DNA of 64,000 nt, from IMG/VR virus record IMGVR_UViG_3300008259_003073, one strand, 5' to 3'. The notes below the pieces were generated by a model. It ran no database searches, was not told where the DNA came from, and was given only the letters and a program-made list of their open reading frames with translations. Both the position numbers and the translations under genes were made by a program. Positions 42,277 to 62,361 of the stretch are shown here, piece by piece; the first letter of the stretch is position 1; each line of letters starts with the position of its first letter. The stretch is from a virus. Taxonomy: Duplodnaviria; Caudoviricetes.

Positions 42277-43890
42277 TTAAAGAGTTTCTAAACCATCTAC
42301 GAGAATCTTACCGTAGAATTCTGGTCTTACGATTTTCTTTGCGTAACGAGTCATAACACCTCTACGTGGAGTAAAGTTGGTTGGGTCGTACACTAAAGGA
42401 GTCATAATCAATGGTACATAAGGTGCGTAAACTGCTCCAGTCTCGAAGAAGTTAGAACCTTTGAAACCTAACAAGATTACGTTTTCAGTCATGTAAGGGT
42501 TTTTGTAAACATCGTATCTGTTAGAGATTGAACCGATGTTAGTTACACCTGCTGCGAAAGTCAACGCATCTTTACCAGGGTTTGCAGAGAATCCGTTCAT
42601 TGATTCCAAAATTGTAGCTACGTTTGGAGAAACAACCAAGAAGTTTGCTCCACCACGCATAGTCAATTGGTGAATTTTGTTAGATACTTTCTGCAATTTG
42701 ATACCCAAAGTTTGGAACCAAGTATTCTTTTGGTAAGCCGAAGCAGCTGCTGCGTTAGAATCAATAGCGAATCCAGCACCAGTCCACTCATATCCTACTT
42801 TAGATGACCAGTATTCAGTTGTGAATGCGTTCTGCTGCAACATCTCAAGGATTTCCAAATCAATCTCCAAAGAGATGTATTCAGATAACATTTGAGTCAA
42901 TTCAGCTTCTGCATCTACAGAGTGATATGCGTTCAAATCTTGCGCCAATTCAGGAGTCCAAATTGCCTTCAACTTACGTGTTTTAGCAACGATAGGCTCT
43001 GATTTCAATTCCAATTCAATTTCTGGAATTGCCAAATCTGTTCCTCTATCTTCGAAATCACCACGAGAAATATCAGTAGGTTGTACGTGATATGCCAATG
43101 ATACACCAACAGTTGTAAGGTTAGATAAACCAGTTACAGATGCAACGAATTCAACATTTGAACCATTTTTAGTTGTGTATTGTGGATAGTATCCTGTTAC
43201 AGAACCTGTTAATAAAGTTGGTTCGAAAGCTCTAACACCATTGAAATCAGCATCAGCTGGTAAAGCTACAACGATTTTCTTCAATGTGTTACCTGCGAAT
43301 GATGCAGAAACTGAACCAGAAGATAAATCATAATCGATATCAGCTAAAGATGCAGATGCAAAAGTAGCAGTGATAGCAGCAGTAGCGTTGTTGATTGTAT
43401 AACCAAAACGTCCTGCACCATAAAGACCTCCTTCTGGAGATTGAGTTGAACCTAGTTTGTTACCAGCTGGAGATAAAGAATCTTTACCGAAAGTACCACT
43501 GTTACCAAACAAAGATGAACCTGTGAAATTTGGATTACCCGCTGGGTTAGTACCATATTTGAAGTCCATGTAGAAAATAAGACCTGATGGTAAGTTCATT
43601 GGTTGAACTGAAACGAATTCTTTCGCTGCAATAGAACCGAAGATACGTCTTACCAAAGGAAGAGCCACACCAGCCCACTCTTCAGAACCTGAAGAAGTAC
43701 CAGTACGAGTTGCCTCATCCAATAATTGTTTAGCCTGGTTTTCTAACATTACTGCCATACCATGCTTTGTAGTTTCAGAACCTACTCCTTCAAGTAGACC
43801 TGTTCTTTCCCATTTGCCTTTCAAACCTCTGGTTTGCTCAAGCATCACGCTCTGTGGGTTCGCGCCGCTCATTAATTTTTTAATGTTCAT
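42277..43890 (-). CDS. gp23: major capsid protein, T4 gp23-like
   Basis: LPLVRR...EFVSVQPMNLPSGLIFY ... AKTRKLKAIWTPELAQDLNAYHSVDAEAEL ... YAPYVPL...DPTNFTPRRGVMTRY. Confidence 0.95.
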   Translation of the reverse strand: MNIKKLMSGANPQSVMLEQTRGLKGKWERTGLLEGVGSETTKHGMAVMLENQAKQLLDEATRTGTSSGSEEWAGVALPLVRRIFGSIAAKEFVSVQPMNLPSGLIFYMDFKYGTNPAGNPNFTGSSLFGNSGTFGKDSLSPAGNKLGSTQSPEGGLYGAGRFGYTINNATAAITATFASASLADIDYDLSSGSVSASFAGNTLKKIVVALPADADFNGVRAFEPTLLTGSVTGYYPQYTTKNGSNVEFVASVTGLSNLTTVGVSLAYHVQPTDISRGDFEDRGTDLAIPEIELELKSEPIVAKTRKLKAIWTPELAQDLNAYHSVDAEAELTQMLSEYISLEIDLEILEMLQQNAFTTEYWSSKVGYEWTGAGFAIDSNAAAASAYQKNTWFQTLGIKLQKVSNKIHQLTMRGGANFLVVSPNVATILESMNGFSANPGKDALTFAAGVTNIGSISNRYDVYKNPYMTENVILLGFKGSNFFETGAVYAPYVPLIMTPLVYDPTNFTPRRGVMTRYAKKIVRPEFYGKILVDGLETL

Positions 43891-47276: not shown

Positions 47277-47867
47277 TTAATTTAATTCTATTATAATTTC
47301 TCTCATTAAATCTTGTGATTTACACCACTTACCACATTCTTCTGCCATTTTAGCCCACTGCTTTGATTCATTCATTGGTGCCATAAATGCTCCATGTGTG
47401 GATGGATTAGAAACGAAATCCCAACCAACCAATTCGAAATCTTCCTGAACCATTACGGTCCCATCTTTTAATTCCTTTACTGAACCTAATCCTCGTGATG
47501 AAATACCTAAACGGATATTATTTTTTAATAATTCTTTTAAGATATTACCAGATGGAGTTGAAAGAATTTCTACTACACCACATACATCATCACCTTCCCA
47601 ATAAATTTCTCTAATGTTGTGGGATACATTTTTTAAGTTGATAACAGGAGAATCTGGATGGTCCAACTCACCTAGCGCTCTACGTTCTTTAATAAGTTGT
47701 TTGTATTTTGCACATTCTCTTTCTAAAATTTCTCTAGGATAGCGTCTACCATTTTGATTAGCAGCACCTGCTCTTTGTAAGATGCCCTTTACCAAATATG
47801 TTCCATTTTCTTCTTGTTGAAGTTTTGCTTCAAACAAATGGGTTTCTATCAATAATCCTTTATTCAT
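47277..47867 (-). CDS. gp21: prohead core protease, T4 gp21-like
   Basis: GILQRA...NQNGRRYP ... RALGELDHP ... VSH ... LGISSRGLGS ... WDFVSNPST.GA. Confidence 0.92.
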   Translation of the reverse strand: MNKGLLIETHLFEAKLQQEENGTYLVKGILQRAGAANQNGRRYPREILERECAKYKQLIKERRALGELDHPDSPVINLKNVSHNIREIYWEGDDVCGVVEILSTPSGNILKELLKNNIRLGISSRGLGSVKELKDGTVMVQEDFELVGWDFVSNPSTHGAFMAPMNESKQWAKMAEECGKWCKSQDLMREIIIELN

Positions 47868-49003: not shown

Positions 49004-50677
49004 TTATTTATCCGTAGTAGATTTACCAAAAACTCTTTGTATTTCCGGTCCTTTTGAAGAATCTACTTTTGATTTTATAATTTTAAGTGCATCTTTTTTT
49101 AATTCACTAGGATGAGAATTAAACCATTCTGAAATATCTTCATTACTCTTTATTGCTCTTCTTCTTTGTCCACCATCATCGATATAATTTGTGTAAAAAT
49201 CATACCATCTTAATACGGAATCCGCTAATTCTTTTCCAGTTTTGGCAGGTGTGTTTTGACTTGCTTCGTTTACTGATTCGTATTTAATCATATCTGGATT
49301 AAACTTTTCAAAATTCTTTCTTGCCCATTTTACGGCAGCTTCATAAGAATTGAATTTAATCCTATCCTGTTTGAACCCCTTTGCCTTATTTAAGAAATCA
49401 ATATAAACTTTTTCTTCGTTTATAGATTCTTGAATTTTATTTCTTTTCATCCATTCTTCTAAATTACGAATTGCTGAATCAAATACTCTACTTCTATCAT
49501 GGTCCATTCCAAAGTTTTTGAAGTATTCTTTCATCATCTGATACGGTGAATCTAATTGCTCACCGTTTCTTTTCATATCTTTGATATTCATAGCAACTTG
49601 ATAAGCTGCCATCTTACCACCAAAGAAAATAGCTTCGGATGTAATATCATTCCAAAATCTATCCACCAATGAAGATAATGGTTTTCCTTTTGAGCGATAC
49701 CCAAATTTTTCGTTACCTAATGATTCTACAAAGTAAATCAATCTTTCTGCGTTGGTTACTTTATCTAAAAACTTTTCCTTTACCATTCCTTGAAGAACTT
49801 TTTCACCCTGTGATGAAATTGGAATTTTGTTGATTCCTAATTCTTTCATTTTAGAATCAACATCACGAGGCATCATAAATTCGTTTATTGATTTACCTTC
49901 ACTAATTACTTTATTACTTGGAAATGATACTGATGGTTGGTTTCCAAATGTTTTATCAACTTTAGCATTGATTCCAAATTGTGATTTTAACATTTTTACA
50001 ACACCACTGCCAAACTTTATATCAGTAAGTTTAAGATAAATGTAATTTCTATTAGGTGCATTCTTAATTTCACCACTTACAAACTTTGAACCTATTAATT
50101 TAATAATATCATCTACTACATCTGCTGCAAGGTATCCTTTAAGTTCGGATTCTTTTACTACGGAATATCCAGTTAAATCGGCTTGCCTCTTTCCCTTTTT
50201 CTCTTCACTATCTTTACCACTAAATGCGAATGGAGTATTGTATCCTTCAACACCACCAGTAGTATTCATCTCATCTACTTTTAATTCGGCATCTTTGTAC
50301 ATATCACTAACTTTGTCATTCAATTCTGCTGCCAATTTTTTCTTTTGTGCAGTTAGTGTTTTTAGTTGTTGTATGTGTTGTTTTTCGGCAGGAGTACCTT
50401 TGGATTTTTTATATGCTTCTAAACTCTTTTCCATAGAATCTAAAACTTTTGCATAATCCGTTTGAATGGCCTTAACAGAACGTAATTCAGCCAACACCAT
50501 TTCTTTTATTTTATCAGGCAATCCTTTGTGAGATGTTGATGCAAAATCTTTAGCATCTTTATCACTCATTGAATCTGCTGCTTTTTCAACTTCTGGGGAT
50601 GGGTTTTCCATATCGCCCTTTTGAGCGGCGTGTACCATACCCATAAATTTTTGTTGTGCTTTAGATACTGCTGGCAT
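49004..50677 (-). CDS. modular prohead/internal head protein (N-terminal DUF3008-like MPAVSKAQQ)
   Basis: MPAVSKAQQKFMGMVHA, EMNTTGGVEGYNTPFAF, and several INE/VNE/IKE-delimited modules. Confidence 0.6.
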   Translation of the reverse strand: MPAVSKAQQKFMGMVHAAQKGDMENPSPEVEKAADSMSDKDAKDFASTSHKGLPDKIKEMVLAELRSVKAIQTDYAKVLDSMEKSLEAYKKSKGTPAEKQHIQQLKTLTAQKKKLAAELNDKVSDMYKDAELKVDEMNTTGGVEGYNTPFAFSGKDSEEKKGKRQADLTGYSVVKESELKGYLAADVVDDIIKLIGSKFVSGEIKNAPNRNYIYLKLTDIKFGSGVVKMLKSQFGINAKVDKTFGNQPSVSFPSNKVISEGKSINEFMMPRDVDSKMKELGINKIPISSQGEKVLQGMVKEKFLDKVTNAERLIYFVESLGNEKFGYRSKGKPLSSLVDRFWNDITSEAIFFGGKMAAYQVAMNIKDMKRNGEQLDSPYQMMKEYFKNFGMDHDRSRVFDSAIRNLEEWMKRNKIQESINEEKVYIDFLNKAKGFKQDRIKFNSYEAAVKWARKNFEKFNPDMIKYESVNEASQNTPAKTGKELADSVLRWYDFYTNYIDDGGQRRRAIKSNEDISEWFNSHPSELKKDALKIIKSKVDSSKGPEIQRVFGKSTTDK

Positions 50678-51836: not shown

Positions 51837-53579
51837 TTACTTTTTGGTTAAATCTTCTGTCAAAATAGTTTTTTTATTACCATCCATATCCTTAAAAACT
51901 TCAAAATATGAACTCTTTCTCGGTTTGTATGGAACAGAACCTTCTTTTGCTTTAAGAGTTTTTATTCCTAATGGGTCTCTACCTTCAGGATGGTCATCAT
52001 GCCCATATCTAACAGGGTCTTTTGGTCTACCAACCTGTCCATCTAATTCAAGTTTTAACTTATTCAACTCCTCTTCAACATTAGTTGGTCCACCTTCAGT
52101 TCCAGTTTCTTTTGCTGGGTCTACACCTTGTGTTTCAATTGAAGTTAAACGGAACATTTGTTTAGTATCATCTAATACCTGCAATGTTAATTCATCCTGC
52201 TCATCTTTTGCCATCTTCATTACGGATTCATACATCCATTCTTTGGAGAACATCTTTGTTTGTTGCATTTGTTGAATTAGGGCTACTTTTGAAGTGTATA
52301 GTTCAACCTGCTCCTGCTCATAAATTCTAGATGGAACTGTTAATTCCAATGTAAAGTCTGTTAAACGGTCATCGTTAATACCTTGTGCGTATAAATGAAC
52401 GATTGCAATTTTAGTTAATTCGGAAATCAATACTCTCTGAACTCTTTCAATTGTTTTGGCAAAACGAATATCCATTGATGCCAATGTTGCTTTACCATTA
52501 GTATCTTCCTCATAACCCAAATATGCTTTTGGAATTTTAAGTGCAGCCATCAACTTCCCTTTTAAGTAATTGATGTCATCAATCATATTGTACTCTAAAC
52601 CTTTTAGGGTATCAATTGAAGTTCCATTATCACTACCTCGAACTGGCATATAATAATCTTCAATAAGATTCATCATATTGTACTTTAAGTTGTACTCACC
52701 CGTTCTTTCATCAACAAATGGAACTTTCTTTGATGCGTTGATGATTTTTTGCATGTAGTTATCCACTTCGTTTGGTGGGATATTACCAACATCCACTTTA
52801 AAAATTCTCTTTTCAGGAGCTCTCATTACTCTGTGGATTAACATTGCATCTTCCATCAACATTAATTGTTTCCAAACTCTTCTAGCTCCTTCAACCATAG
52901 ATTTTCCATAAGGTAAGAAGTTTGAATCTGAATTTAAACGGAAGTGAGCAATCTCATAGTTTTCAAATTCCTTTTTAGTAGTTTGACCTACTGCCATATA
53001 TGGGTTTTGATATGGGGCATATACGAATTTAACTCTTTGTGGATTTTCAGGATCAAATCCCTCTACTCTACTCATTTCGTATGATGATAATGGCATTACG
53101 TTTATAATTCCCAATTCATCTGCAATTTCTAATTCTAAAAAGAAATCACCATATTTTACCAAGTTTCGTGTCCAAGGCCATAAGTTGAACTCAATGTTAA
53201 GAATATCGTAAAATAAGTTTTCTAATATTTGTTTGATGTTATCATCATCGTGATGAATTTTTAAAATACTACCATGTTCGTTTTTAGCGGTACATTCATC
53301 TGCATATACATCCAATGCGGATGATAAAATGGGGTCCATATCCATTGAATCGTAATCTCTAAACAAATCGATACGAACTTGTTGGTATGCCATTGCAGAT
53401 TCCACCCCACCTACACCGTAGTTACTTACTTTGAGTTTCATATAACGGTCTACAAGGTTAGTTGTCATATTCTGATACTCATCAGTATCGACTATTTTAA
53501 CTCCTTTTTCCGTTTTTCTTACTATGGTATTTGTTGAAAATAATTTCTGTAACCTACCGAATAATGTTTTATCTGCCAT
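51837..53579 (-). CDS. gp20: portal protein, T4 gp20-like
   Basis: ALDVYADE ... RNLVKYGDFF ... HFRL ... PYGKS ... EDAMLIHR..RAPEKRIF.VDVGN.P ... EDYYMP.RG...GTSIDTL.G ... ALKIPK. Confidence 0.95.
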   Translation of the reverse strand: MADKTLFGRLQKLFSTNTIVRKTEKGVKIVDTDEYQNMTTNLVDRYMKLKVSNYGVGGVESAMAYQQVRIDLFRDYDSMDMDPILSSALDVYADECTAKNEHGSILKIHHDDDNIKQILENLFYDILNIEFNLWPWTRNLVKYGDFFLELEIADELGIINVMPLSSYEMSRVEGFDPENPQRVKFVYAPYQNPYMAVGQTTKKEFENYEIAHFRLNSDSNFLPYGKSMVEGARRVWKQLMLMEDAMLIHRVMRAPEKRIFKVDVGNIPPNEVDNYMQKIINASKKVPFVDERTGEYNLKYNMMNLIEDYYMPVRGSDNGTSIDTLKGLEYNMIDDINYLKGKLMAALKIPKAYLGYEEDTNGKATLASMDIRFAKTIERVQRVLISELTKIAIVHLYAQGINDDRLTDFTLELTVPSRIYEQEQVELYTSKVALIQQMQQTKMFSKEWMYESVMKMAKDEQDELTLQVLDDTKQMFRLTSIETQGVDPAKETGTEGGPTNVEEELNKLKLELDGQVGRPKDPVRYGHDDHPEGRDPLGIKTLKAKEGSVPYKPRKSSYFEVFKDMDGNKKTILTEDLTKK

Positions 53580-53636: not shown

Positions 53637-54140
53637 TTACCATTTTCTACAAGACCAATATCTAGCTTTATGTCTAGGTCCTGGTTGGTCACAATTATGT
53701 CTTGCTCTAAAACTTCTTCTTCTATCTGGATTGTTCTTTTTAATTTTTACACCCTTTTGTCCAAAGTTTACTTTAACAACATTACCTTGTGGATTTTTTA
53801 CATATACTTTAAATTTCTTAACATCACCTGCCATTGGTTTTCCCAACTGCACTTCTCTACCCTGATATTCTGCTTCTCGTAAACATTGACAACCTTCATT
53901 TAATGTTTTATCGTACCCTCTCATAAAAGAAATAAAATCTTCCATGTCCTCATCTTCTACATCGTATTCTTCTGGTTCAACATATCCATAATTTACATCA
54001 TCATCACTATCTATATCTTCCGACATAGGTACACAATTGGGAACTTCTCTACCATCTTTGGTTTTCATTCCAACTTGCTGATACCCTTTCCAACAAGGTC
54101 CTTGTTTTTCTTTTAAAGGAATTAAATTTATTAGTCTCAT
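53637..54140 (-). CDS. modular head-region protein (CWKGY..VG.K..VPNCVP module plus DUF6321-like C-terminus)
   Basis: GPCWKGYQQVGMK...VPNCVP and KKFKVYVKN..GNVVKVNFG...SFRARHNC....ARYWSCRKW. Confidence 0.6.
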   Translation of the reverse strand: MRLINLIPLKEKQGPCWKGYQQVGMKTKDGREVPNCVPMSEDIDSDDDVNYGYVEPEEYDVEDEDMEDFISFMRGYDKTLNEGCQCLREAEYQGREVQLGKPMAGDVKKFKVYVKNPQGNVVKVNFGQKGVKIKKNNPDRRRSFRARHNCDQPGPRHKARYWSCRKW

Positions 54141-54174: not shown

Positions 54175-55782
54175 TTAACGAAGTAACCAAGTTAGGTTTT
54201 CTACATCACCTTTACCTACTTCCATTTCGTATGGATTCTTACCAGACCAACCAGTGGAGTACACACCACTAAACTGATTTATTTGAGTTGAGTTCAACAT
54301 ACTCTTTGTTAAATCAATACCTTCTTGTCTCAAACGAAGTGCAGTGTTACGAACCCACAACCCAATTGCCAATGCCATTACCAAGTCATCATTGTACCCC
54401 TTCATTGCTTCTGCTCTACCACCATGCCATATAAAGGTAAACATCTCATCTATTAAACGATTTGAACGTATTAGAATATCTTTATCACTCATATATGTAT
54501 CCAATGCTGAAATGATAAGAGGACGAGTTTTAGATGTTGTGGAGAATCCGGCAACCATTTGTTTTTCATCTCTGTAAAACTTATTACTCATTTGTTTTTC
54601 AACATCAATATATTTCAAATCGTTACTCATATAAAACAGATTTGGATACCCTCTATCTATGATTTGTTGAATACATGCCCAACCTACGTTTGAATTTTCT
54701 ACAACTAATAAAGCGTTGTTATATTCAGTTGCTAATGAAGTTAAAAAATTACCAAAATCTTTTGTTTCAATTTTACCTCTGTATTCTGCTACTTGACAAC
54801 AATCTTCTATATCAATTACCTGTGCAGTAGAATAATCGGCTCCATCTCCTCTCGCAACGTCAGCACATACCATGTACTGCTTGTTATAGTTTGGGTACTC
54901 CCATATCCATAAGTTATTATCAAACCCTCTCTTCTCAACTGGGTCCATCACATAGGTATCTTTGTACCAAGTTAATAATGCGGGGTCAATTACGGTATCA
55001 CCTGAACCAATAAAGTCACAATCACATTCTTGTGCTGCACCTTTAACCCCCAAAATACGAGTCTGTTCATCTCTCCAAGCCTGGTTTCTTTCAGGGTGTA
55101 CTGTCCAATGTAGGTTAATACAATTGAAACCATTTGCACCACTTTCACCTTCTACCCACATTTTATGGAACCAGTTACCAACACCGTTTGGTGTAGATAA
55201 TACTATTGCGTTACCACCTGTTGATAGGGTTGATTGTGCCGATAACCAAATTTCATCGATATCTCTAATGAATGCCGCTTCATCCACTACTAAAAGTGAT
55301 AGAGCTTCCGAACGACCTGCATCTGGTGAAGATGCAATTGCCTTTACCTGTGAACCATTCTTTAATTTAAGTGATAGTTTGTTATCTTCAGCCGCTGCAG
55401 TTCCACCATCTCTCAACCATACTGGCAATAAATCGTGCATAACCCTAACCTTTTCTACAAGGTTTTTGGCTACCGTTACTTTTGTTGCAATAACCAATGC
55501 GTTAAAGTCCTGATTGAATATCATTTTCCAAAGAATAAATCCCGCAGAAAGTGTTGATAAACCTAACTGACGAGATTTTAGAATGATATTAAAACGATGG
55601 TCTTTAAAATCAGTTAAACACTCCTCTTGAAAAGGATAAAGGTGAAAGGGAATTTTCCCTCTCACCGGATGTTGAATAACACAATACTTCTTCATAAAGT
55701 AAATGGGGTCAGCCGCACATTTACGATATTCTTCAGAAATTATTTCTTTTAAAGTTTTTTTTGGTTGTCCTTGAACTCCCAT
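54175..55782 (-). CDS. gp17: terminase large subunit, T4 gp17-like
   Basis: Walker A ILKSRQLGLST, Walker B LLVVDEAAFI, STPNG, nuclease motifs ADVARGDGADYS and GYNDDLVMA. Confidence 0.95.
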   Translation of the reverse strand: MGVQGQPKKTLKEIISEEYRKCAADPIYFMKKYCVIQHPVRGKIPFHLYPFQEECLTDFKDHRFNIILKSRQLGLSTLSAGFILWKMIFNQDFNALVIATKVTVAKNLVEKVRVMHDLLPVWLRDGGTAAAEDNKLSLKLKNGSQVKAIASSPDAGRSEALSLLVVDEAAFIRDIDEIWLSAQSTLSTGGNAIVLSTPNGVGNWFHKMWVEGESGANGFNCINLHWTVHPERNQAWRDEQTRILGVKGAAQECDCDFIGSGDTVIDPALLTWYKDTYVMDPVEKRGFDNNLWIWEYPNYNKQYMVCADVARGDGADYSTAQVIDIEDCCQVAEYRGKIETKDFGNFLTSLATEYNNALLVVENSNVGWACIQQIIDRGYPNLFYMSNDLKYIDVEKQMSNKFYRDEKQMVAGFSTTSKTRPLIISALDTYMSDKDILIRSNRLIDEMFTFIWHGGRAEAMKGYNDDLVMALAIGLWVRNTALRLRQEGIDLTKSMLNSTQINQFSGVYSTGWSGKNPYEMEVGKGDVENLTWLLR

Positions 55783-55783
55783 A

Positions 55784-56434
55784 TTATTTTTTCAATTTAA
55801 TCTTCCAATATGTTCCAAATCCAACATAAGGAGAGAATGCGCCAGTTGTTCCATCAGTGGTTCTATTGTTAACACCAATGTTTAAGTTGTAAATTTTATC
55901 TTTTTTAGTTTTAAGAATTAAACCAGCTCCAACTGCTGATACATAATCTTCTTTATTAAATCCCCCATTCAAACCGAAATATACTTGATTTTTTGCGGGT
56001 TCTTTAACAATGAGTTCTTCTCTTATAGTTCTTTCTCTAACTTTAGCATCAAATGTTCTACCTAAAATTCTGTTTTGAGATATAGTATCAGTTACCGATA
56101 CGGTTCCCAATGAATCAGGTAATACTAATACATCTTTGTATAAAACTTTAGAATAGTAATTTTTTAACAATGCTGCCGTATCTATTACCGCAGGAATTTT
56201 TACTTCTTTTTCAACAATTATTTCATGATAGATGTCATCTCCTTTTTTGGTTACTACTTTGGTTTTGATTACATCAACGGTATCAATTGTATGTTTAATT
56301 ACTTCGTATTTTTTACCGTCTATTTTAATAATCCTACCACCTGGCATTACTCCACCTGGGTTAAACCATTGTAATAATACATAGATAATTAGTACTGCTA
56401 TTGCAATGTTTTTAAATGTTACAAATTTTTTCAT
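55784..56434 (-). CDS. membrane-anchored protein (N-terminal TM helix), possibly spanin-like
   Basis: MKKFVTFKNIAIAVLIIYVLLQWF, then a beta-rich periplasmic-type region. Confidence 0.5.
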   Translation of the reverse strand: MKKFVTFKNIAIAVLIIYVLLQWFNPGGVMPGGRIIKIDGKKYEVIKHTIDTVDVIKTKVVTKKGDDIYHEIIVEKEVKIPAVIDTAALLKNYYSKVLYKDVLVLPDSLGTVSVTDTISQNRILGRTFDAKVRERTIREELIVKEPAKNQVYFGLNGGFNKEDYVSAVGAGLILKTKKDKIYNLNIGVNNRTTDGTTGAFSPYVGFGTYWKIKLKK

Positions 56435-56437
56435 AAT

Positions 56438-57106
56438 TTAGTTTTTTATTAATTCTGAATGATTCAACTCTCGTAACTTATTTTCTAATGCCAATTTACG
56501 TTCTAACAATGCTTCAATTGCATCGTAAGCACCTTCAATATCAGTTTTTAAATCAGATTTTACTTTTTCAATGTCAATATCCCATTGCCATTTACTAAAT
56601 GTACCATCTTCATTAACCATTTCAATTTGTTGCGTTACACTATCCAACGCTTCTTCTAATTGTGATTTAGTATCTCTAACAAAATCCAATTTATTTAATG
56701 TTATTCTATAATCTTCATAAAAAGGCCAACTACCATCTTCTCGTAATGATTGTTCTATTTTCCTCATACAAGTTACACAATACCCAGTTCTAACAATTAA
56801 TTTTTTATCTGCACTACTGTATTGTATTGTTCCACAATTTTCAGAAGAACAAGTTGTTATTTTTTTCAAATACTCTCTGGCATCATCTAATTTAGTGGCA
56901 TTGATTTTGAAACCTTCTTTTTGTTCCCATTCGATACCATTTTCATCTACCCAAATTTCGCCAACTTCTCGTTTTGTTTCATCTGCCTTTTCATAACCAA
57001 ACACATTTTGATTATCATCAGTTCTACCAAAAACCGTATCAATAATTAATTGACGGGATTTGTGTATGTGTTTATTTTTTTCGTCAAAACTTTTTCTTTT
57101 TGCCAT
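56438..57106 (-). CDS. hypothetical protein with Cys pairs (CSSENC, CVTC) and a coiled coil
   Basis: 222-aa ORF with R.VGE.W.DENG.EW.QKEG and C-x4-C...C-x2-C. Confidence 0.6.
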   Translation of the reverse strand: MAKRKSFDEKNKHIHKSRQLIIDTVFGRTDDNQNVFGYEKADETKREVGEIWVDENGIEWEQKEGFKINATKLDDAREYLKKITTCSSENCGTIQYSSADKKLIVRTGYCVTCMRKIEQSLREDGSWPFYEDYRITLNKLDFVRDTKSQLEEALDSVTQQIEMVNEDGTFSKWQWDIDIEKVKSDLKTDIEGAYDAIEALLERKLALENKLRELNHSELIKN

Positions 57107-57151: not shown

Positions 57152-60100
57152 TTATTCGTAAAATATACCTAATATCTGATTTAGTGGTGCAAATGTGCCT
57201 GTAAGTTTGTATGTATTACCCTTATACACAAACACTATACCTTCATTAGGAACTATCTTACCCTTACCACCAATACTAGCTAATCTACTTAATTCCATTT
57301 TTAATTTAGCTATTTTAGATACATCACCACTACCTCTTACTTTTTCCGCAGTAGATTCCAATCTGTTTTTCATATCGGCAACTGCTGCATTTGGATTTGC
57401 AGTTAAAACTGAACTCATAAACGAAAGAACATCGGCACCAACTCCCAAAAATATCTCTTCAAATTGTCTAACATTTTCTTTTTGTTGCTTTACTACATTT
57501 ACTTTATCATTATCCATTGCCCACTTTTGAGCTTCCTTATCTACAATTGCATTTAAACGGAATGATTTATCACCAAACGCCCATCTCTTTATTAATGCAT
57601 CTCTTTCAAATTTCTCTAATTTAACTTTTGATTTATCTATAAAATTAGACCACCATGCTTGATGATATTCGGAAACACCATCGTTGTTAGATAATTGAAA
57701 TTCAGATTGTAATTTTTGTAATTTACTTAAATACTTACCTTGCTTTGAACTCAAATTTTCATTTTTAGGAAGTTGTGTAACAGGAGGTCCTTGTATAGTA
57801 TATTTAGATTGAACATCCGCATTCACTTGCTTAATCATCCCTGCCAATTTAGTTGCTGCAGATTGGTCAGCAGAAACTGCTTTACCACTTTCATCATAAC
57901 AAGTTGTGTTATGAAATACCAATAAAGCCTGTCCGTAAGGAATAACATTTACAGAAGTTGGCCATATTACTTCCAAATTCATAAAACAATGTCCTTCATT
58001 AAATATTTTCTTTCGTTGTGGTTCCGAAAGAGATTGGATTGCCGCTGATAAATCTTTCATTGCAAAATTATATGCATCGGTTAATCCACCTCTACCACTA
58101 AATTTAGATGCAACATCTTCAATTCCCATTGCGTTTGCTCCACCATTTGCCAAATGTCCTTTGTTTCTTGCTGCAATCAATCTACCATTCTTCCAGCTAA
58201 TTGCTAATGCCTGTCCATCGGTTTTTTCTCTTGTCAATTCTAACTCACCAGTCAATGCTCCTGTGATTATATTTTTTAAATCACCAAAAGTTAAATCCAT
58301 ATCATCAAATGGGTGAGACATGTGACCGTATGCACCACCTTCAGTTAAAATCGTTTCATTTGTCTTTTTTTTTAAGTTTCTTTTTTGAAGAACTAATTTA
58401 TTTAATTCTGAAAATAAATCAGCAATATCTTTATCCAATTTTTTTTCATCAGCTGACATTGGGGATTCAATATCTACATTGGAATAAAGTTTTTTCTTTT
58501 TAGCAATTAAAGCATCTACTTTTTTAAGTAAATCATTCTTTGCCGTATCTAAATCTTTTATTATATCTTCCGTTGATGATTCGTTTAGCTTAACCCCCGC
58601 ATAATCTAATCTATATTCATAATACGCCTTTTTAATATCAGCAGGAATCTTTGAATTTTTAGTGAATATTTGGTCTACCATCTTACGAGTATCATTTGAT
58701 GATAGATTCCATTTTAACTTATTTTTATCTAATGTAAAGAAAGTATTTAAAGTAAAATCTATCTTACTCAACATTGGTTTCAAAATTTCATTTTCAAAAA
58801 ATGAATCGTATTCCTTTCGCTGCTCTCTCTCTAAATAATTAAGAGCGAAGTTCCCATCATACAAATACGCTTTTAATGCTTTTCCAACCATCACCAACAC
58901 ATACTTTTTATCGTTAGGACCTAAATACTTTTCATCGGAATTACCAATCACATATGTGTACTGATTACCTACCAAGTCCTTTAATTTTACTTCGTTTAAT
59001 TTACCGGTATCCGTTTTAAAGAATGGACCTCTTCTTACACTTCTAAAATCTAAACTCATTTCGTTTCCAAAAATCTCTTTCGGTGCAAGTACTTTTACTC
59101 TAATAGTTCCATTTTTGTTATCTACACCTATTGTTTCAAAATCAATTTCGGAGTATTTTTTACCTTTAAATCCTAAATTTTTACCAGTAATAAACTTATG
59201 AACTTTACCACTACTAACTGCCTGTGCTTCACTTACAGGTTCATATCCATTATCTTCGGTATCTTTTATATTGGGTTGATGTCCTGGCTGTCTTTTTCTA
59301 TTATCATCAAAATCTACAGTATCTAATTCAGCTGATTGCCCAATATCGTTCTTGTGATTGTTTGTAAAATCTTTTACGGCTTGAGATATAGATTCACCAC
59401 GTGGTATTCTAAATGTTGTTGCCTTCTTACCATTGATTGTAGGCATTCCGTGGTCATCTTTACCAATATCTTTAACGGTAACTCTTTTATTTTTAAACTT
59501 ACCCATTAAAACCTCATCACCCTTATCAACATCTACATTAATATCTTCTTTGACAAAATCAGTTTCAACATATTCTACACTTGGTAAGTTTTTTATAGTA
59601 TATTTTATAGTTCTTTCTTCCGCATCATCATCACCAAATATAGCATCTGCTTTTGGAAAATCGGTTTGAGTGTATCCACCATTCGCATACCAGGATTCAG
59701 GTCTATCGGAATCTAATTTTCTTTTTTTACCTTTTTTAATAAATGAACCATCTGGAACATCTGCGGTATTTGCAGTTCCAACATTACTAACCTCTGTGTA
59801 AATTTGTTTGTTGATTCTACCATATTCTCTCATAAGAATACCTGCTACGGCATGTGCTTGGTTTTCAACTGGCGAACCATCTGCCCCATCTTTAACTTCG
59901 TTTCGTATAAACCCCAACTCATCTTGTTTTCTATGAACCATTTCATGTGCAAGTGTTCTCAATATATCCGCAGTTAATCTACCTTCAGTTGCAACATATA
60001 TTGATTTACTAATCGGGTCATATCCACCCAACGATGTTTTGGCTTCTGCAAATTTTCTACCACCAACTAAAGTTATTTTTGGAGTTTCTTTTAATTTTAA

Positions 60101-62347
60101 TCGTTTAGTTGCAAACTCTACAAAATTTTGAATAGATTGTTGTTTTGTTTCTGAAAGATTTTCTTTCATCAAATCCGAAGCATTAGCCATAGATTGATTT
60201 TTAGTTCCTTCTTTTTTATATCTAGCAATCGTTTGTATTAATTGTTCATCGGATAGTTTATAGTTTTGCATTATTTCTAATGTTTTTTCTATAAAGTTTG
60301 GTACAAATTTTTTCGTATCAAATCCTTCTTCTCCCTTTTTATTTTCAAATATACCAGCTACTCCCAATGCAATACCACCTGCAGAAGCTTGTGCCGCATT
60401 AGCACCTAAAGCTTCAAACGCAGAGTGTTTTATTATGTCTTTAACTATGTAAGACCCCAAATGACCTCCACCAAATTTAGCTGCTATTTTTGCTCCGGCT
60501 GCTTGTGCAATACCACTAGCACTAGCACCTTTTGATGCTGCAGATATGCCACCCATTAAACCACCTGTCGTTGCAATTGAACCCATTATTATTGCGGAAG
60601 TTTTTACAAAATTTCCAAGACCCTTTTTTTGTTTTTGACTTTCATTCCAAGACTTTTCTGCTAATTCCCGTTGTTCTGGAGTTAAATCTTTTCTATATAC
60701 AGGTTCTTTTTTTGTTTTTGGTTTTCCTAATATAGTTTTAGCCTGTATAGGATTACCATTTTCATCTTTAATCGGATGTCCATGCTTATCTTCTTTGTAA
60801 ACAGGAACATCTTTCATTTTAGGTTTTACTTTTCCTTGAAAATCTAGTTTACGAGTTGTTGAATCTGGTTCTGTAAAATCATCCCAATGTTTAGTTTTAC
60901 CTTCTGAATCTTTAACAGCCCCAAATCTTCCAGTAGTTGCCAATGATTTTATAGCACTAGCAGTTCCCACCAGCATTTCTTTGTTATGCTTGAATGTATG
61001 CATAATACCATGCCCTACATACGATGCTGCTTTTTTTAGTATATTCATAGCCCCTTTTCTTTCTTCAGATTGTGGGTTATTTGCTTTATCAATTGATTCG
61101 TTATCTCCTTTTGATAAACCTTTTCTGGCATCAGTTACTTGTTGACTTGTTTCCGCATCTTTCTTTTCTTTATCAGATTTTTCAGCAGACGCTTTTAATT
61201 CAGAACCACTTAATTTTTGAGGTGATGTAGGCGGTGGCGGAGGTGGTGGTGGTGGCGGTTTTGGGACACCTTGTTTTTGTTTCGTTGCATCCACCTTACC
61301 TTGTGCAGTAGCTCCCTTATTTACAGGTTGTCCAGGTTGTGATGGTTTTGGTTGATTTGCAGGTGCATCCGATGGTCCCTGTGCCATTCCTTTTTTCTTA
61401 ACTGCATCAGCTTCAGCAGGAGTTAGGGTTCTGATTTTACCATCTTCAGATTTATGACTCGCAGGTTGTCCTTCTTTACCATAGTATCCACCACCCAAAT
61501 GTTTCAATCCCATTTTTTCGGCTTCGGATTCTTCTTTGAAATATGTTCTGGTAAATTCTTCGAACATTTCTTCCATTGCAACTCTACCAATTATTTCTGC
61601 AATTGGATTATATAATTCGTCCGTTGGATGTTCAATTTGATGTCGAGTAGGATGTGGTTCGGGTCTCATTTCATACGATGGCTTCGTATTATTAGTCTCA
61701 TCTACTGAACCCGTTGGTGCTCCATTAATATATCCTCCTGGAAGATTTAATCCAGTTCCTATACCGCCTGGAAACCCATTTTCATTTAATTTACCTGTTA
61801 TCATACCGAATACCTCTTTATCAAATTTTGGATATGCTTTTAAAAATCCCTTTTTCTTTTCATCATCACTTCCCTTACCTAACCAATTACGAACATCTGT
61901 TCCACTAATTGGGTTTGGTTCGGCGGGAACGGCATATACATATCCAATTTCATCGTATCCGTATCCAGCTTTTTCGTTATATGGTTTAAAGTATTTACCC
62001 GCTAATCTATCTGCATCCTTTTCTCCAACTGCTGCTACATACGCAGTAGTTTTACCATCAAATTGAGATAATATTTCTTTTGGAGCATACGGATTACGAA
62101 CTTGAACTATCTTATCTTCCGGTATTCCAAACATTGTAGTAATTATTTTCACCTTCTCATTAAAATTAAAAGGAGATTTAGGACCTGATGTATCATTGGA
62201 TGTTCCAATATATACATTTGATTTTCCAAATTTTTGAGCAAGCTTTAAATAAGAAACATAATGTCCCTTATGGAATGGTTGAAAACGACCTGAATATACT
62301 ACTATGGTCCTTTTTACTATCGGTTTATCTTTTTCGTTCAAATTCAT
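57152..62347 (-). CDS. 1731-aa multidomain protein: HIGH-family nucleotidyltransferase, HExxH metallopeptidase, and C-terminal KxDG ligase-like (DUF6267-like) domain
   Basis: YSGRFQPFHKGH and ISGTDVR (aa 18-153); RTLAHEMVHRKQ (59947-59933); EGGAYGHMSHPFDD...EKTDGQ...ARNKG (58342 to end). Confidence 0.75.
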   Translation of the reverse strand: MNLNEKDKPIVKRTIVVYSGRFQPFHKGHYVSYLKLAQKFGKSNVYIGTSNDTSGPKSPFNFNEKVKIITTMFGIPEDKIVQVRNPYAPKEILSQFDGKTTAYVAAVGEKDADRLAGKYFKPYNEKAGYGYDEIGYVYAVPAEPNPISGTDVRNWLGKGSDDEKKKGFLKAYPKFDKEVFGMITGKLNENGFPGGIGTGLNLPGGYINGAPTGSVDETNNTKPSYEMRPEPHPTRHQIEHPTDELYNPIAEIIGRVAMEEMFEEFTRTYFKEESEAEKMGLKHLGGGYYGKEGQPASHKSEDGKIRTLTPAEADAVKKKGMAQGPSDAPANQPKPSQPGQPVNKGATAQGKVDATKQKQGVPKPPPPPPPPPPTSPQKLSGSELKASAEKSDKEKKDAETSQQVTDARKGLSKGDNESIDKANNPQSEERKGAMNILKKAASYVGHGIMHTFKHNKEMLVGTASAIKSLATTGRFGAVKDSEGKTKHWDDFTEPDSTTRKLDFQGKVKPKMKDVPVYKEDKHGHPIKDENGNPIQAKTILGKPKTKKEPVYRKDLTPEQRELAEKSWNESQKQKKGLGNFVKTSAIIMGSIATTGGLMGGISAASKGASASGIAQAAGAKIAAKFGGGHLGSYIVKDIIKHSAFEALGANAAQASAGGIALGVAGIFENKKGEEGFDTKKFVPNFIEKTLEIMQNYKLSDEQLIQTIARYKKEGTKNQSMANASDLMKENLSETKQQSIQNFVEFATKRLKLKETPKITLVGGRKFAEAKTSLGGYDPISKSIYVATEGRLTADILRTLAHEMVHRKQDELGFIRNEVKDGADGSPVENQAHAVAGILMREYGRINKQIYTEVSNVGTANTADVPDGSFIKKGKKRKLDSDRPESWYANGGYTQTDFPKADAIFGDDDAEERTIKYTIKNLPSVEYVETDFVKEDINVDVDKGDEVLMGKFKNKRVTVKDIGKDDHGMPTINGKKATTFRIPRGESISQAVKDFTNNHKNDIGQSAELDTVDFDDNRKRQPGHQPNIKDTEDNGYEPVSEAQAVSSGKVHKFITGKNLGFKGKKYSEIDFETIGVDNKNGTIRVKVLAPKEIFGNEMSLDFRSVRRGPFFKTDTGKLNEVKLKDLVGNQYTYVIGNSDEKYLGPNDKKYVLVMVGKALKAYLYDGNFALNYLEREQRKEYDSFFENEILKPMLSKIDFTLNTFFTLDKNKLKWNLSSNDTRKMVDQIFTKNSKIPADIKKAYYEYRLDYAGVKLNESSTEDIIKDLDTAKNDLLKKVDALIAKKKKLYSNVDIESPMSADEKKLDKDIADLFSELNKLVLQKRNLKKKTNETILTEGGAYGHMSHPFDDMDLTFGDLKNIITGALTGELELTREKTDGQALAISWKNGRLIAARNKGHLANGGANAMGIEDVASKFSGRGGLTDAYNFAMKDLSAAIQSLSEPQRKKIFNEGHCFMNLEVIWPTSVNVIPYGQALLVFHNTTCYDESGKAVSADQSAATKLAGMIKQVNADVQSKYTIQGPPVTQLPKNENLSSKQGKYLSKLQKLQSEFQLSNNDGVSEYHQAWWSNFIDKSKVKLEKFERDALIKRWAFGDKSFRLNAIVDKEAQKWAMDNDKVNVVKQQKENVRQFEEIFLGVGADVLSFMSSVLTANPNAAVADMKNRLESTAEKVRGSGDVSKIAKLKMELSRLASIGGKGKIVPNEGIVFVYKGNTYKLTGTFAPLNQILGIFYE

Positions 62348-62361
62348 ACATATAAATATAA

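Follow-up and report, generated by a model that had tools for sequence, protein, structure and literature searches.

In bacteriophage T4 the prohead protease gp21 cleaves after Glu in the sequence L/I-x-E, and the same motif closes the propeptides, 6-20 residues long, that direct Alt and the internal proteins into the prohead core (PMC9026906; PMC5694885). Alt is cut at ITE-6, losing 6 residues, and at LTE-619 (PMC5694885), and gp22, gp67 and gp68 are reduced to many fragments, which exit the head (PMC9026906). Polyvalent proteins, as described by Iyer, Burroughs, Anand, de Souza and Aravind in 2017, are delivered with the phage DNA and often carry zincins, and autoprocessing by such domains has been proposed (PMC5512222). 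We analysed an open reading frame (ORF) of 1731 amino acids at positions 57152-62347 on the minus strand of IMG/VR record IMGVR_UViG_3300008259_003073, a 64,000-nucleotide stretch of DNA from a virus of the Caudoviricetes (the whole stretch is called the window below). An initial annotation had read this ORF as a head-packaged polyprotein, a chain of unrelated modules with borders at x-x-E motifs. The frame is a single one and open throughout, and the motifs listed in that annotation are all present in the translation where it had placed them. We lean, if only slightly, towards the view that a distant T4-like phage makes from this ORF a polyvalent polyprotein targeted to the head, which the prohead protease would cut; its cleavage, packaging and activities are what we infer. 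The concept is already known from polyvalent proteins (Iyer et al. 2017) and from the protease-processed ejection proteins of T4 and the phiKZ group. What appears new in the sequences compared here is the use of a T4-type protease code at the junctions, the fixed frame of a transferase and a ligase-like domain, and the ligase-like family itself.

When compared with more than 300 relatives, the protein resolves into fixed ends and shuffled middle cassettes. The frame consists of a leader ending in hydrophobic-x-Glu, a HIGH-type nucleotidyltransferase and a C-terminal ligase-like domain, and the middle varies from 6 to more than 1400 amino acids. In Microcystis phage Mel-JY01 a 639-amino-acid protein matches residues 12-188 and 1317-1729, and the two aligned blocks are separated by six residues. 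Nearly every complete ORF (lengths 650-1933 amino acids) has the transferase and the C-terminal domain in one frame. The idea of a chain of unrelated modules needs to be changed for the two end domains, which are a conserved pair and not unrelated passengers: they are adjacent in Mel-JY01 and occur together in nearly every complete relative. The variable part is the roughly 1130 amino acids that separate them in the window. Two scans of IMG/VR returned 293 and 584 stretches with relatives of the C-terminal domain; the 584 are confirmed, and the family includes at least 1946 metagenome proteins at E<=0.001. Residues 190-1316, searched against 1.84 billion representatives, matched 2950 proteins, and the matches form discrete blocks. 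Single-block proteins of about 100-140 amino acids are among the matches listed; the zincin block has several of 121-141 amino acids, and proteins of 96-140 amino acids, some of which are metagenome entries that may be fragments, match only the cassette at residues 1041-1119. One relative (L006) has two cassettes in reverse order relative to the window. Among 36 relatives scanned, the slot holds a P-loop kinase (Zeta_toxin/AAA_33) in four and a Nudix, an RNase_T and a Zn_protease module in one each. The marine relatives L146, L109, L125 and L157 run in the order leader, small beta cassette, P-loop kinase (AAA_33/Zeta_toxin), mid-protein HIGH transferase and ligase-like domain; L130 is the carrier of the Zn_protease (PF05618) module. 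Megablast with the gene as query gave no match in the phage collection, and tblastn against the same collection found nine records, with the end domains only in Mel-JY01 and two uncultured huge phages. A literature search found no paper on Mel-JY01, and T4-type polyproteins were covered only by general literature. The possibility that the middle is an intein or a single mobile insertion was rejected, as the protein has no Hint or intein match and the cassettes are independently distributed.

The evidence for processing comes mainly from the borders between these blocks. Homology breakpoints cluster at residues 187-190, 729-733, 852, 934, 980-989, 1038-1040, 1114-1119, 1254-1256 and 1331-1336, and eight of these nine clusters coincide with the x-x-E borders named in the initial annotation (189, 729, 852, 934, 1040, 1119, 1256 and 1336). 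Cassette starts were projected onto the relatives and their distinct upstream contexts collected. The start of the small beta cassette (residue 935) follows a Glu in 76 of 76 contexts, that of the cassette at 1041 in 44 of 48, that of the cassette at 853-934 in 21 of 27 and that of the GFPGG module in 14 of 20; for the cassette at 1120-1256 Glu is at P1 in 10 of 15. At the start of the C-terminal domain, GGAYGH is preceded by Glu, in the form [LI]-x-E, in 114 of 126 contexts. The residue at P3 is in most cases L, I, V, Y or F, though the preceding sequences are mutually unrelated. The junction Glu residues are kept in 63-94% of aligned relatives, those of the eight named borders in 63-92%, compared with 41-65% conservation of the flanks. 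Hydrophobic-x-E occurs within -6 to +3 of 203 of the 369 distinct non-collinear junctions versus 72.7 expected (2.8x), and none of 20000 simulations gave more than 102 such junctions. Conservation of the sites at module borders, which the initial annotation presupposed, is thus seen both in the retention of Glu above the flanks and in the enrichment at junctions. When E was replaced in the junction test by D, K, Q, N, S, T, A or G the ratios were 0.5-1.2, so that in these sequences the enrichment is clearly specific to Glu. The plain count of hydrophobic-x-E sites was dropped as evidence, the motif being frequent in the large terminase (TerL) and portal proteins too; because such a count is uninformative, we used the conservation and junction tests. 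Glu specificity argues against the reading in which the protein is an intact cytoplasmic multi-domain enzyme of repair or nucleotide metabolism, made late and never packaged, and hydrophobic-x-Glu marks linkers or helix ends or arises from the way in which the cassettes recombine. We regard an intact enzyme of this kind as unlikely, and return below to the points in its favour.

The leader, MNLNE, ends in L-x-E as T4 N-terminal propeptides do. Its Glu is kept in 94% of aligned relatives and its P3 is hydrophobic in 100%. The leaders of relatives read MNLSE, MNIKE or MNLINE, or are 12-16 amino acids long, such as MNKLTKWLVESILTE and MSLGKYLADQLLKE, with those of distant relatives being the longer ones. 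In four marine relatives (L125, L134, L146 and L157) the leader stands directly before the small beta cassette and not before the transferase, which makes it a separable element, and a conserved leader that can be separated from the transferase is again difficult to explain for an intact cytoplasmic enzyme. Similar N-termini occur on other products of the head module in the window: MANSKLLKE on a scaffold-like protein, MNKGLLIE on the protease, and MIRLKNLLKE and MSQKEPLNE on other ORFs, and in the gp23-type capsid protein QLLDE, followed by A, ends an N-terminal stretch of the size of a propeptide. The protein thus resembles T4 Alt and IPI-IPIII in having a short leader ending in hydrophobic-x-Glu, an S77 protease in the same genome and an enzyme cargo. 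It differs in that one ORF holds about ten units with internal sites, whereas in T4 there is one cargo with a propeptide; it has no sequence similarity to Alt or the internal proteins, and its packaging is something we infer.

The ORF is surrounded by a T4-type head module, and all genes of the window are on the minus strand. A T4-type core cargo should have its protease in the same phage, and the window encodes an S77 prohead protease of the gp21 type (1.7e-29) about 9 kb from the polyprotein gene, in agreement with the gp21-type processing supposed by the initial annotation. Judged by its capsid protein, the phage has its closest cultured relatives in Flavobacterium phage immuto and Microcystis phage Mel-JY01 (about 54% identity) and is therefore a distant T4-like phage of aquatic origin. 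Synteny was counted in 117 loci with enough flank, the distant ones having >=3.5 kb downstream. TerL lies downstream on the same strand in 63/63 loci of the window clade and 54/54 distant loci (117/117), a packaging and late-gene context like that of polyvalent proteins, and the portal lies downstream in 56/63 and 46/54. This invariant position beside terminase and portal is a further point against a cytoplasmic enzyme. No paralogues of the cassettes of the 1731-amino-acid ORF were found elsewhere in the window. In other phages its cassettes occur in one polypeptide with cassettes of two further window ORFs: in 21 proteins with those of 49004-50677, which encodes a DUF3008 protein and occupies the interval from portal to protease that holds core proteins in T4, and in 13 with those of 53637-54140. 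The cassette pool is therefore common to head-module genes, which would not be expected of a cytoplasmic enzyme either. These two ORFs likewise look mosaic, with hydrophobic-x-E junctions, and the 557-amino-acid ORF starts with a DUF3008 motif. Location in the head module would also suit an assembly protein of prohead-core or scaffold type whose fragments are lost before the DNA is packaged, as those of T4 gp22, gp67 and gp68 leave the head (PMC9026906), and whose enzyme-like domains have no role in the next host. We consider such a protein very improbable, the least probable of the readings weighed here: the middle is too variable for a size-determining scaffold, and the invariant catalytic residues in three enzyme folds and an intein at a catalytic Lys, both described below, favour selection on activity.

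The N-terminal domain (residues 6-189) has GRFQPFHKGH at residue 20, with FHKGH at 25-29, and ISGTDVR at 147-153. On its sequence, its place in the HIGH nucleotidyltransferase superfamily is established, as had been proposed: it matches Pfam CTP_transf_like (4e-5), phrog_395 (2e-12) and, in the PDB, NadM-Nudix 2qjt (7.7e-5). Its best database matches are nicotinamide mononucleotide adenylyltransferases (NMNATs), with which it shares the HxGH and ISxTxxR motifs. Compared with NadM and the archaeal enzymes, however, the similarity covers mainly the first 60-70 residues, and the NCBIfam NMNAT models are matched at 1e-7 but with 31 bits, far below their curated cut-offs of 127-403.

The zincin-like module has HEMVH at residues 801-805 (59933-59947), and its H801, E802, H805 and E828 (H76, E77, H80 and E103 of the module) are invariant in 41 aligned sequences. 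An AlphaFold2 (AF2) model has a predicted local distance difference test (pLDDT) value of 89.7. Foldseek matched this model to IrrE/PprI, SPRTN and minigluzincins at a probability of 0.98-0.99, and the exhaustive aligner VIA matched it to YbeY (Z 9.7), ERAP1 (8.7), Wss1 (8.3), SPRTN (8.2), selecase (7.9) and ArdC (6.2); the best 50 VIA rows are zincin-fold proteins except two or three (a TFIID subunit and two uncharacterised proteins). A profile of the module gave nothing useful against the PDB. The modelled zincin fold, with HExxH and a downstream Glu ligand, is that of a gluzincin-type metallopeptidase, which bears out the metallopeptidase assignment. Its intact and invariant HExxH...E and confident fold raise the possibility that a packaged or injected polyvalent protein is processed by its own zincin and not by the prohead protease, and autoprocessing by such domains was proposed by Iyer et al. 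2017 (PMC5512222). This appears improbable to us, since relatives without a recognisable zincin (Mel-JY01, L006 and marine forms of 750-830 amino acids) keep the leader and [LI]-x-E before the C-terminal domain, the zincin is itself flanked by the same junction motif, and the motif fits the known specificity of S77 proteases and not that of any zincin. Cutting by the prohead protease is thus the processing that we prefer.

For the remaining middle modules, Pfam has no family that matches the region 190-565, the hydrophobic region or the four small cassettes, and for the cassette at 1120-1256 neither Pfam nor the Atlas gave a lead. The proline run and the Gly/Ala-rich hydrophobic stretch of the initial annotation are real; the run has 11 Pro (the P10 pattern matched from residue 364), and the stretch comprises two segments with a Kyte-Doolittle mean >1.2. 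It could be speculated that this pair is membrane-active, as in some ejection proteins. The linker at 1257-1336 is probably helical, judging from its heptad-like sequence.

The C-terminal domain has motif I at EKTDG (1374-1378), EGIVF at 1702 and YKLTG at 1713. Its motifs can be assigned as I (K1375), Ia (R1394), III (E1459), IIIa (F1478-H1479), IV (E1702-G1703) and V (K1714), motifs III-V being assigned by pattern and order in an alignment of 51 sequences, and III, IIIa, IV and V occur in the order seen in ligases and capping enzymes. Invariant across these 51 diverse relatives are EK-DG, and hence the E-K-x-D-G form of the KxDG motif, A-R-N, E1459, F-H 1478-1479, E-G-x-V-F 1702-1706 and K1714 (E130, F149-H150, E373-G374-x-V376-F377 and K385 in model numbering). 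A conserved GGAYGHMSHPFDD element lies ahead of motif I, motifs IIIa and IV are set apart by about 165 amino acids of helical insert, only one Lys occurs in motif V, and there is no OB domain. The AF2 model built from the alignment has a pLDDT of 82.5, with values <50 for the residues ahead of GG at the domain start. Its top Foldseek matches in the PDB are all RNA ligases, weakly (E 0.06-0.2; Trl1 0.06, T4 Rnl1 0.14). VIA aligned it with NgrRnl (Z 7.4 over 188 amino acids), Trl1 (7.3), REL1 (7.2), T4 Rnl2 (6.9) and T4 Rnl1 (6.8), and with DNA ligases and capping enzymes at about Z 5; ligases and capping enzymes align over about 170-200 residues at Z 5.0-7.4, a range that the tool calls middling, and the only other rows are short helical matches to the insert. 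There is no Pfam match at E<1 and nothing in NCBIfam, no significant match to a family profile or solved member of RNA ligase families Rnl1 to Rnl5, and one of the 51 members matches the RNA_ligase Pfam, at 0.003. From the Atlas came only clusters with DUF6267 in 12-24% of their members, an assignment that Pfam scans did not reproduce. The ligase-like domain of the initial annotation is thus upheld by its motifs, and its modelled fold comes nearest to RNA ligases; we read it as a new family of covalent nucleotidyltransferases closest in shape to these enzymes, for which the fold by itself gives middling evidence. In comparison with the ATP-dependent RNA ligases (Naegleria NgrRnl, the fungal Trl1 ligase domain, Trypanosoma brucei REL1, T4 Rnl1 and Rnl2) it has the same motifs I-V in order, the adenylyltransferase fold as best structural match and no OB domain, but it lacks detectable sequence homology in the PDB profile search and in Pfam, has the helical insert between IIIa and IV in place of an appended N- or C-terminal domain, and has GGAYGHMSHPFDD and the single Lys of motif V.

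Two relatives with 84% identity (L004 and L005) have the gene broken exactly after the motif I Lys. The upstream part runs ...LTREK and then CIAGDT..., the downstream part ...ILVHN and then TDGQALAISW, and the two halves match the N- and C-terminal parts of an intein splicing domain (5.9e-7 and 2.4e-5). Inteins are typically located in the catalytic sites of important enzymes, and a split intein directly after the catalytic Lys marks the motif I site as functional. Together with the invariant ligase motifs and the invariant zincin residues it suggests that enzymatic activity is under selection. The split intein of L004/L005 (8981-10088) has a free-standing 244-amino-acid ORF between its halves, with a weak DUF7487 match and a Cys-rich N-terminus, which is probably a homing endonuclease. 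Dassa and co-workers have reportedly described fractured genes that carry split inteins, with the two halves separated by a free-standing gene for a homing endonuclease (Dassa et al. 2009). The break after the catalytic Lys with an ORF between the halves is like these; the likeness concerns the relatives only, as the gene in the window is uninterrupted. At 12458-15675 of L004/L005 the large terminase is apparently split into three called genes (305, 396 and 345 amino acids), the middle one with a weak intein-splicing match, and this may be a second intein in their head module. In the uncultured huge phage LR756500 (L003, 6022-7272) the ligase-like domain stands alone, at about 420 amino acids, with a leader of its own, MKFLKSYEEFLNE, similar to the capsid-targeting sequence of T4 IPIII.

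A possible sequence of events would be as follows. The protein would be made with the head genes, and the leader would take it into the prohead core, where the S77 protease would cut after the junction Glu residues to give about ten pieces, among them the transferase (21 kDa), the zincin (14 kDa) and the ligase-like enzyme (43 kDa). The larger fragments would remain inside the capsid and pass into the host together with the DNA. In the window the slot between the ends holds a GFPGG module, a region that is first basic and Pro-rich and then hydrophobic with much Gly and Ala, the minimal zincin and the four small cassettes, each cassette being bounded by hydrophobic-x-Glu. The likeliest job of the enzyme pair would be the repair of nucleic-acid ends, specifically RNA sealing, possibly with a supply of nicotinamide adenine dinucleotide (NAD+) or nucleotides, and the pair would then counter host defences that cleave RNA or deplete NAD. 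This functional assignment is the weakest step of the explanation. A P-loop kinase, a Nudix enzyme and a 3'-5' exonuclease prepare nucleic-acid ends for ligation and are usual partners of RNA ligases. Because such partners occur in the relatives, the structural neighbours are RNA ligases, and NAD+ has been linked to RNA repair and phage counter-defence (PMC9503650), we tentatively favour RNA-end repair, possibly with NAD+ or nucleotide supply, as a possibility rather than a likelihood.

The protein shares with polyvalent proteins (PMC5512222) the joining of disparate enzyme domains, here a HIGH transferase, a zincin and a ligase-like domain in one polypeptide, as well as a zincin-like recurrent module, a packaging-gene context and a predicted delivery with DNA. 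It differs in that no MuF, portal, ArdC-N or relaxase anchor was recognised, in that fixed ends flank a variable slot, and in that the junctions are written in the code of a T4-type prohead protease; the short leader may take the place of a virion anchor such as MuF or portal, which polyvalent proteins frequently but not necessarily have. The inner-head and ejection proteins of phiKZ, 201phi2-1 and SPN3US are cut by a gp21-related protease (gp175/gp245) after Glu in a three-residue motif, many times per protein and at redundant sites, as would be the case here; theirs is an S/A/G-x-E motif with long propeptides, and they are unrelated proteins of another lineage.

Several points weigh against a packaged and cleaved polyprotein. 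We found no proteomic, expression or biochemical data for the protein or any relative. The leader has 5 residues, compared with 10-20 in T4 capsid-targeting sequences, and only the 6 of Alt are comparable. Hydrophobic-x-E is a common motif: the protein has 42 such sites when Tyr is counted and 33 when it is not, and TerL and portal have 11-13. The nominal p-value of the junction test is too small, that is, optimistic, because junctions are related by descent. In 12 of the 126 contexts M or C replaces the Glu before GGAYGH, so that cleavage there cannot be universal. For the C-terminal domain, fold matches are only middling (Z about 7, Foldseek E >0.05), and no sequence profile ties it to known ligases (the 51-sequence profile found no ligase in the PDB). 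The end domains always travel in one ORF, which could mean that they need physical linkage and not separation by cutting. This last point is also what favours an intact cytoplasmic enzyme, the pair being joined as in Trl1, one of the best structural matches; such an enzyme would also agree with the addition of a P-loop kinase, Nudix or exonuclease in some relatives, and with the result that no Pfam domain indicating a MuF or portal fusion is present in the 1731-amino-acid protein or in the 36 relatives.

The initial annotation had reported a late motif 3 nt before the ATG. An octamer does lie at that spot, but in the orientation opposite to T4's: it is TATAAATA on the plus strand and the gene is on the minus strand, so the coding strand reads TATTTATA, the reverse complement of the T4 late promoter, and not the T4 late motif. 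The same orientation is shared by 21 of the 23 copies in the window, 15 hand-checked copies precede annotated minus-strand starts by 3-60 nt, and A-TATTTATA is the extended consensus. With 3 nt to the ATG there is no space for a leader; a further copy is found 128 nt upstream, within the preceding gene. The octamer is probably a real gene-upstream signal of this phage and not a T4 late promoter as written, and the gene-upstream signal of this phage group may thus differ from that of T4. Between the polyprotein gene and the large terminase are two small ORFs (56438-57106 and 55784-56434) with no family match. The one of 222 amino acids keeps its position in 63/63 close and 16/54 distant loci, and for this reason may be the small terminase subunit. 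The coordinates of the features are collected in Table 1.

Table 1. Elements of the polyprotein gene, neighbouring head genes and octamer copies, in window positions
Feature	Residues	Positions	Strand	Basis or remark
Leader MNLNE, ends L-x-E; candidate propeptide or capsid-targeting tag	1-5	62333-62347	-	
HIGH (HxGH ... ISxTxxR) nucleotidyltransferase, NMNAT-like; ends GKLNE	6-189	61781-62332	-	
GFPGG module (190-251), low-complexity basic region with 11-Pro run (363-373), Gly/Ala-rich hydrophobic pair (580-605, 646-667)	190-729	60161-61780	-	
Predicted minimal zincin (gluzincin-type) metallopeptidase module; H801, E802, H805, E828	730-852	59792-60160	-	
Cassette, starts after IYTE, ends FVKE	853-934	59546-59791	-	breakpoint clusters 852, 934; no Pfam match
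Small beta-rich cassette DINVDVDKGD...TFRIPRGE and linker, ends PVSE	935-1040	59228-59545	-	
Cassette AQAVSSGK..., ends GKLNE	1041-1119	58991-59227	-	
Cassette VKLKDLVG..., ends VKLNE	1120-1256	58580-58990	-	breakpoints 1114-1119, 1254-1256
Linker, ends ILTE	1257-1336	58340-58579	-	translation
RNA-ligase-like putative covalent nucleotidyltransferase domain	1337-1731	57155-58339	-	motifs and model
Large terminase (TerL)		54175-55782	-	
Portal		51837-53579	-	
Prohead protease, T4 gp21 type; presumed processing enzyme		47277-47867	-	Pfam Peptidase_S77 1.7e-29; own N-terminus MNKGLLIE
gp23-type major capsid protein		42277-43890	-	
Upstream octamer, TATTTATA on coding strand, 3 nt before ATG		62351-62358	-	
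TATAAATA copies		4371, 6499, 10928, 13800, 16114, 18403, 20188, 24097, 30278, 31149, 35037, 35149, 41045, 41771, 42214, 48988, 51811, 54159, 62351, 62475	+	

In its boldest form, which we put forward as a tentative and rather doubtful proposal, the head-targeted polyprotein would belong to an undescribed plug-and-play system of T4-like phages of lakes and oceans. The three-residue code of the protease would serve as the universal cassette junction, and any module placed between the fixed leader-transferase head and the fixed tail would automatically be packaged, released and injected; the tail would represent a novel family of RNA ligases into which a helical domain is inserted, and the enzyme pair a virion-delivered kit for RNA-end repair and NAD+ or nucleotide supply that acts before phage gene expression. 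If the junction rule reflects real cleavage, a phage could evolve its injected arsenal by cassette shuffling without new targeting signals. The T4 capsid-targeting principle, which has already been used to package foreign proteins, would then extend to natural multi-cargo polyproteins, and a large uncharacterised branch would be added to the superfamily of RNA ligases and covalent nucleotidyltransferases. The small cassettes are candidates for early host take-over or counter-defence factors in abundant aquatic phages.

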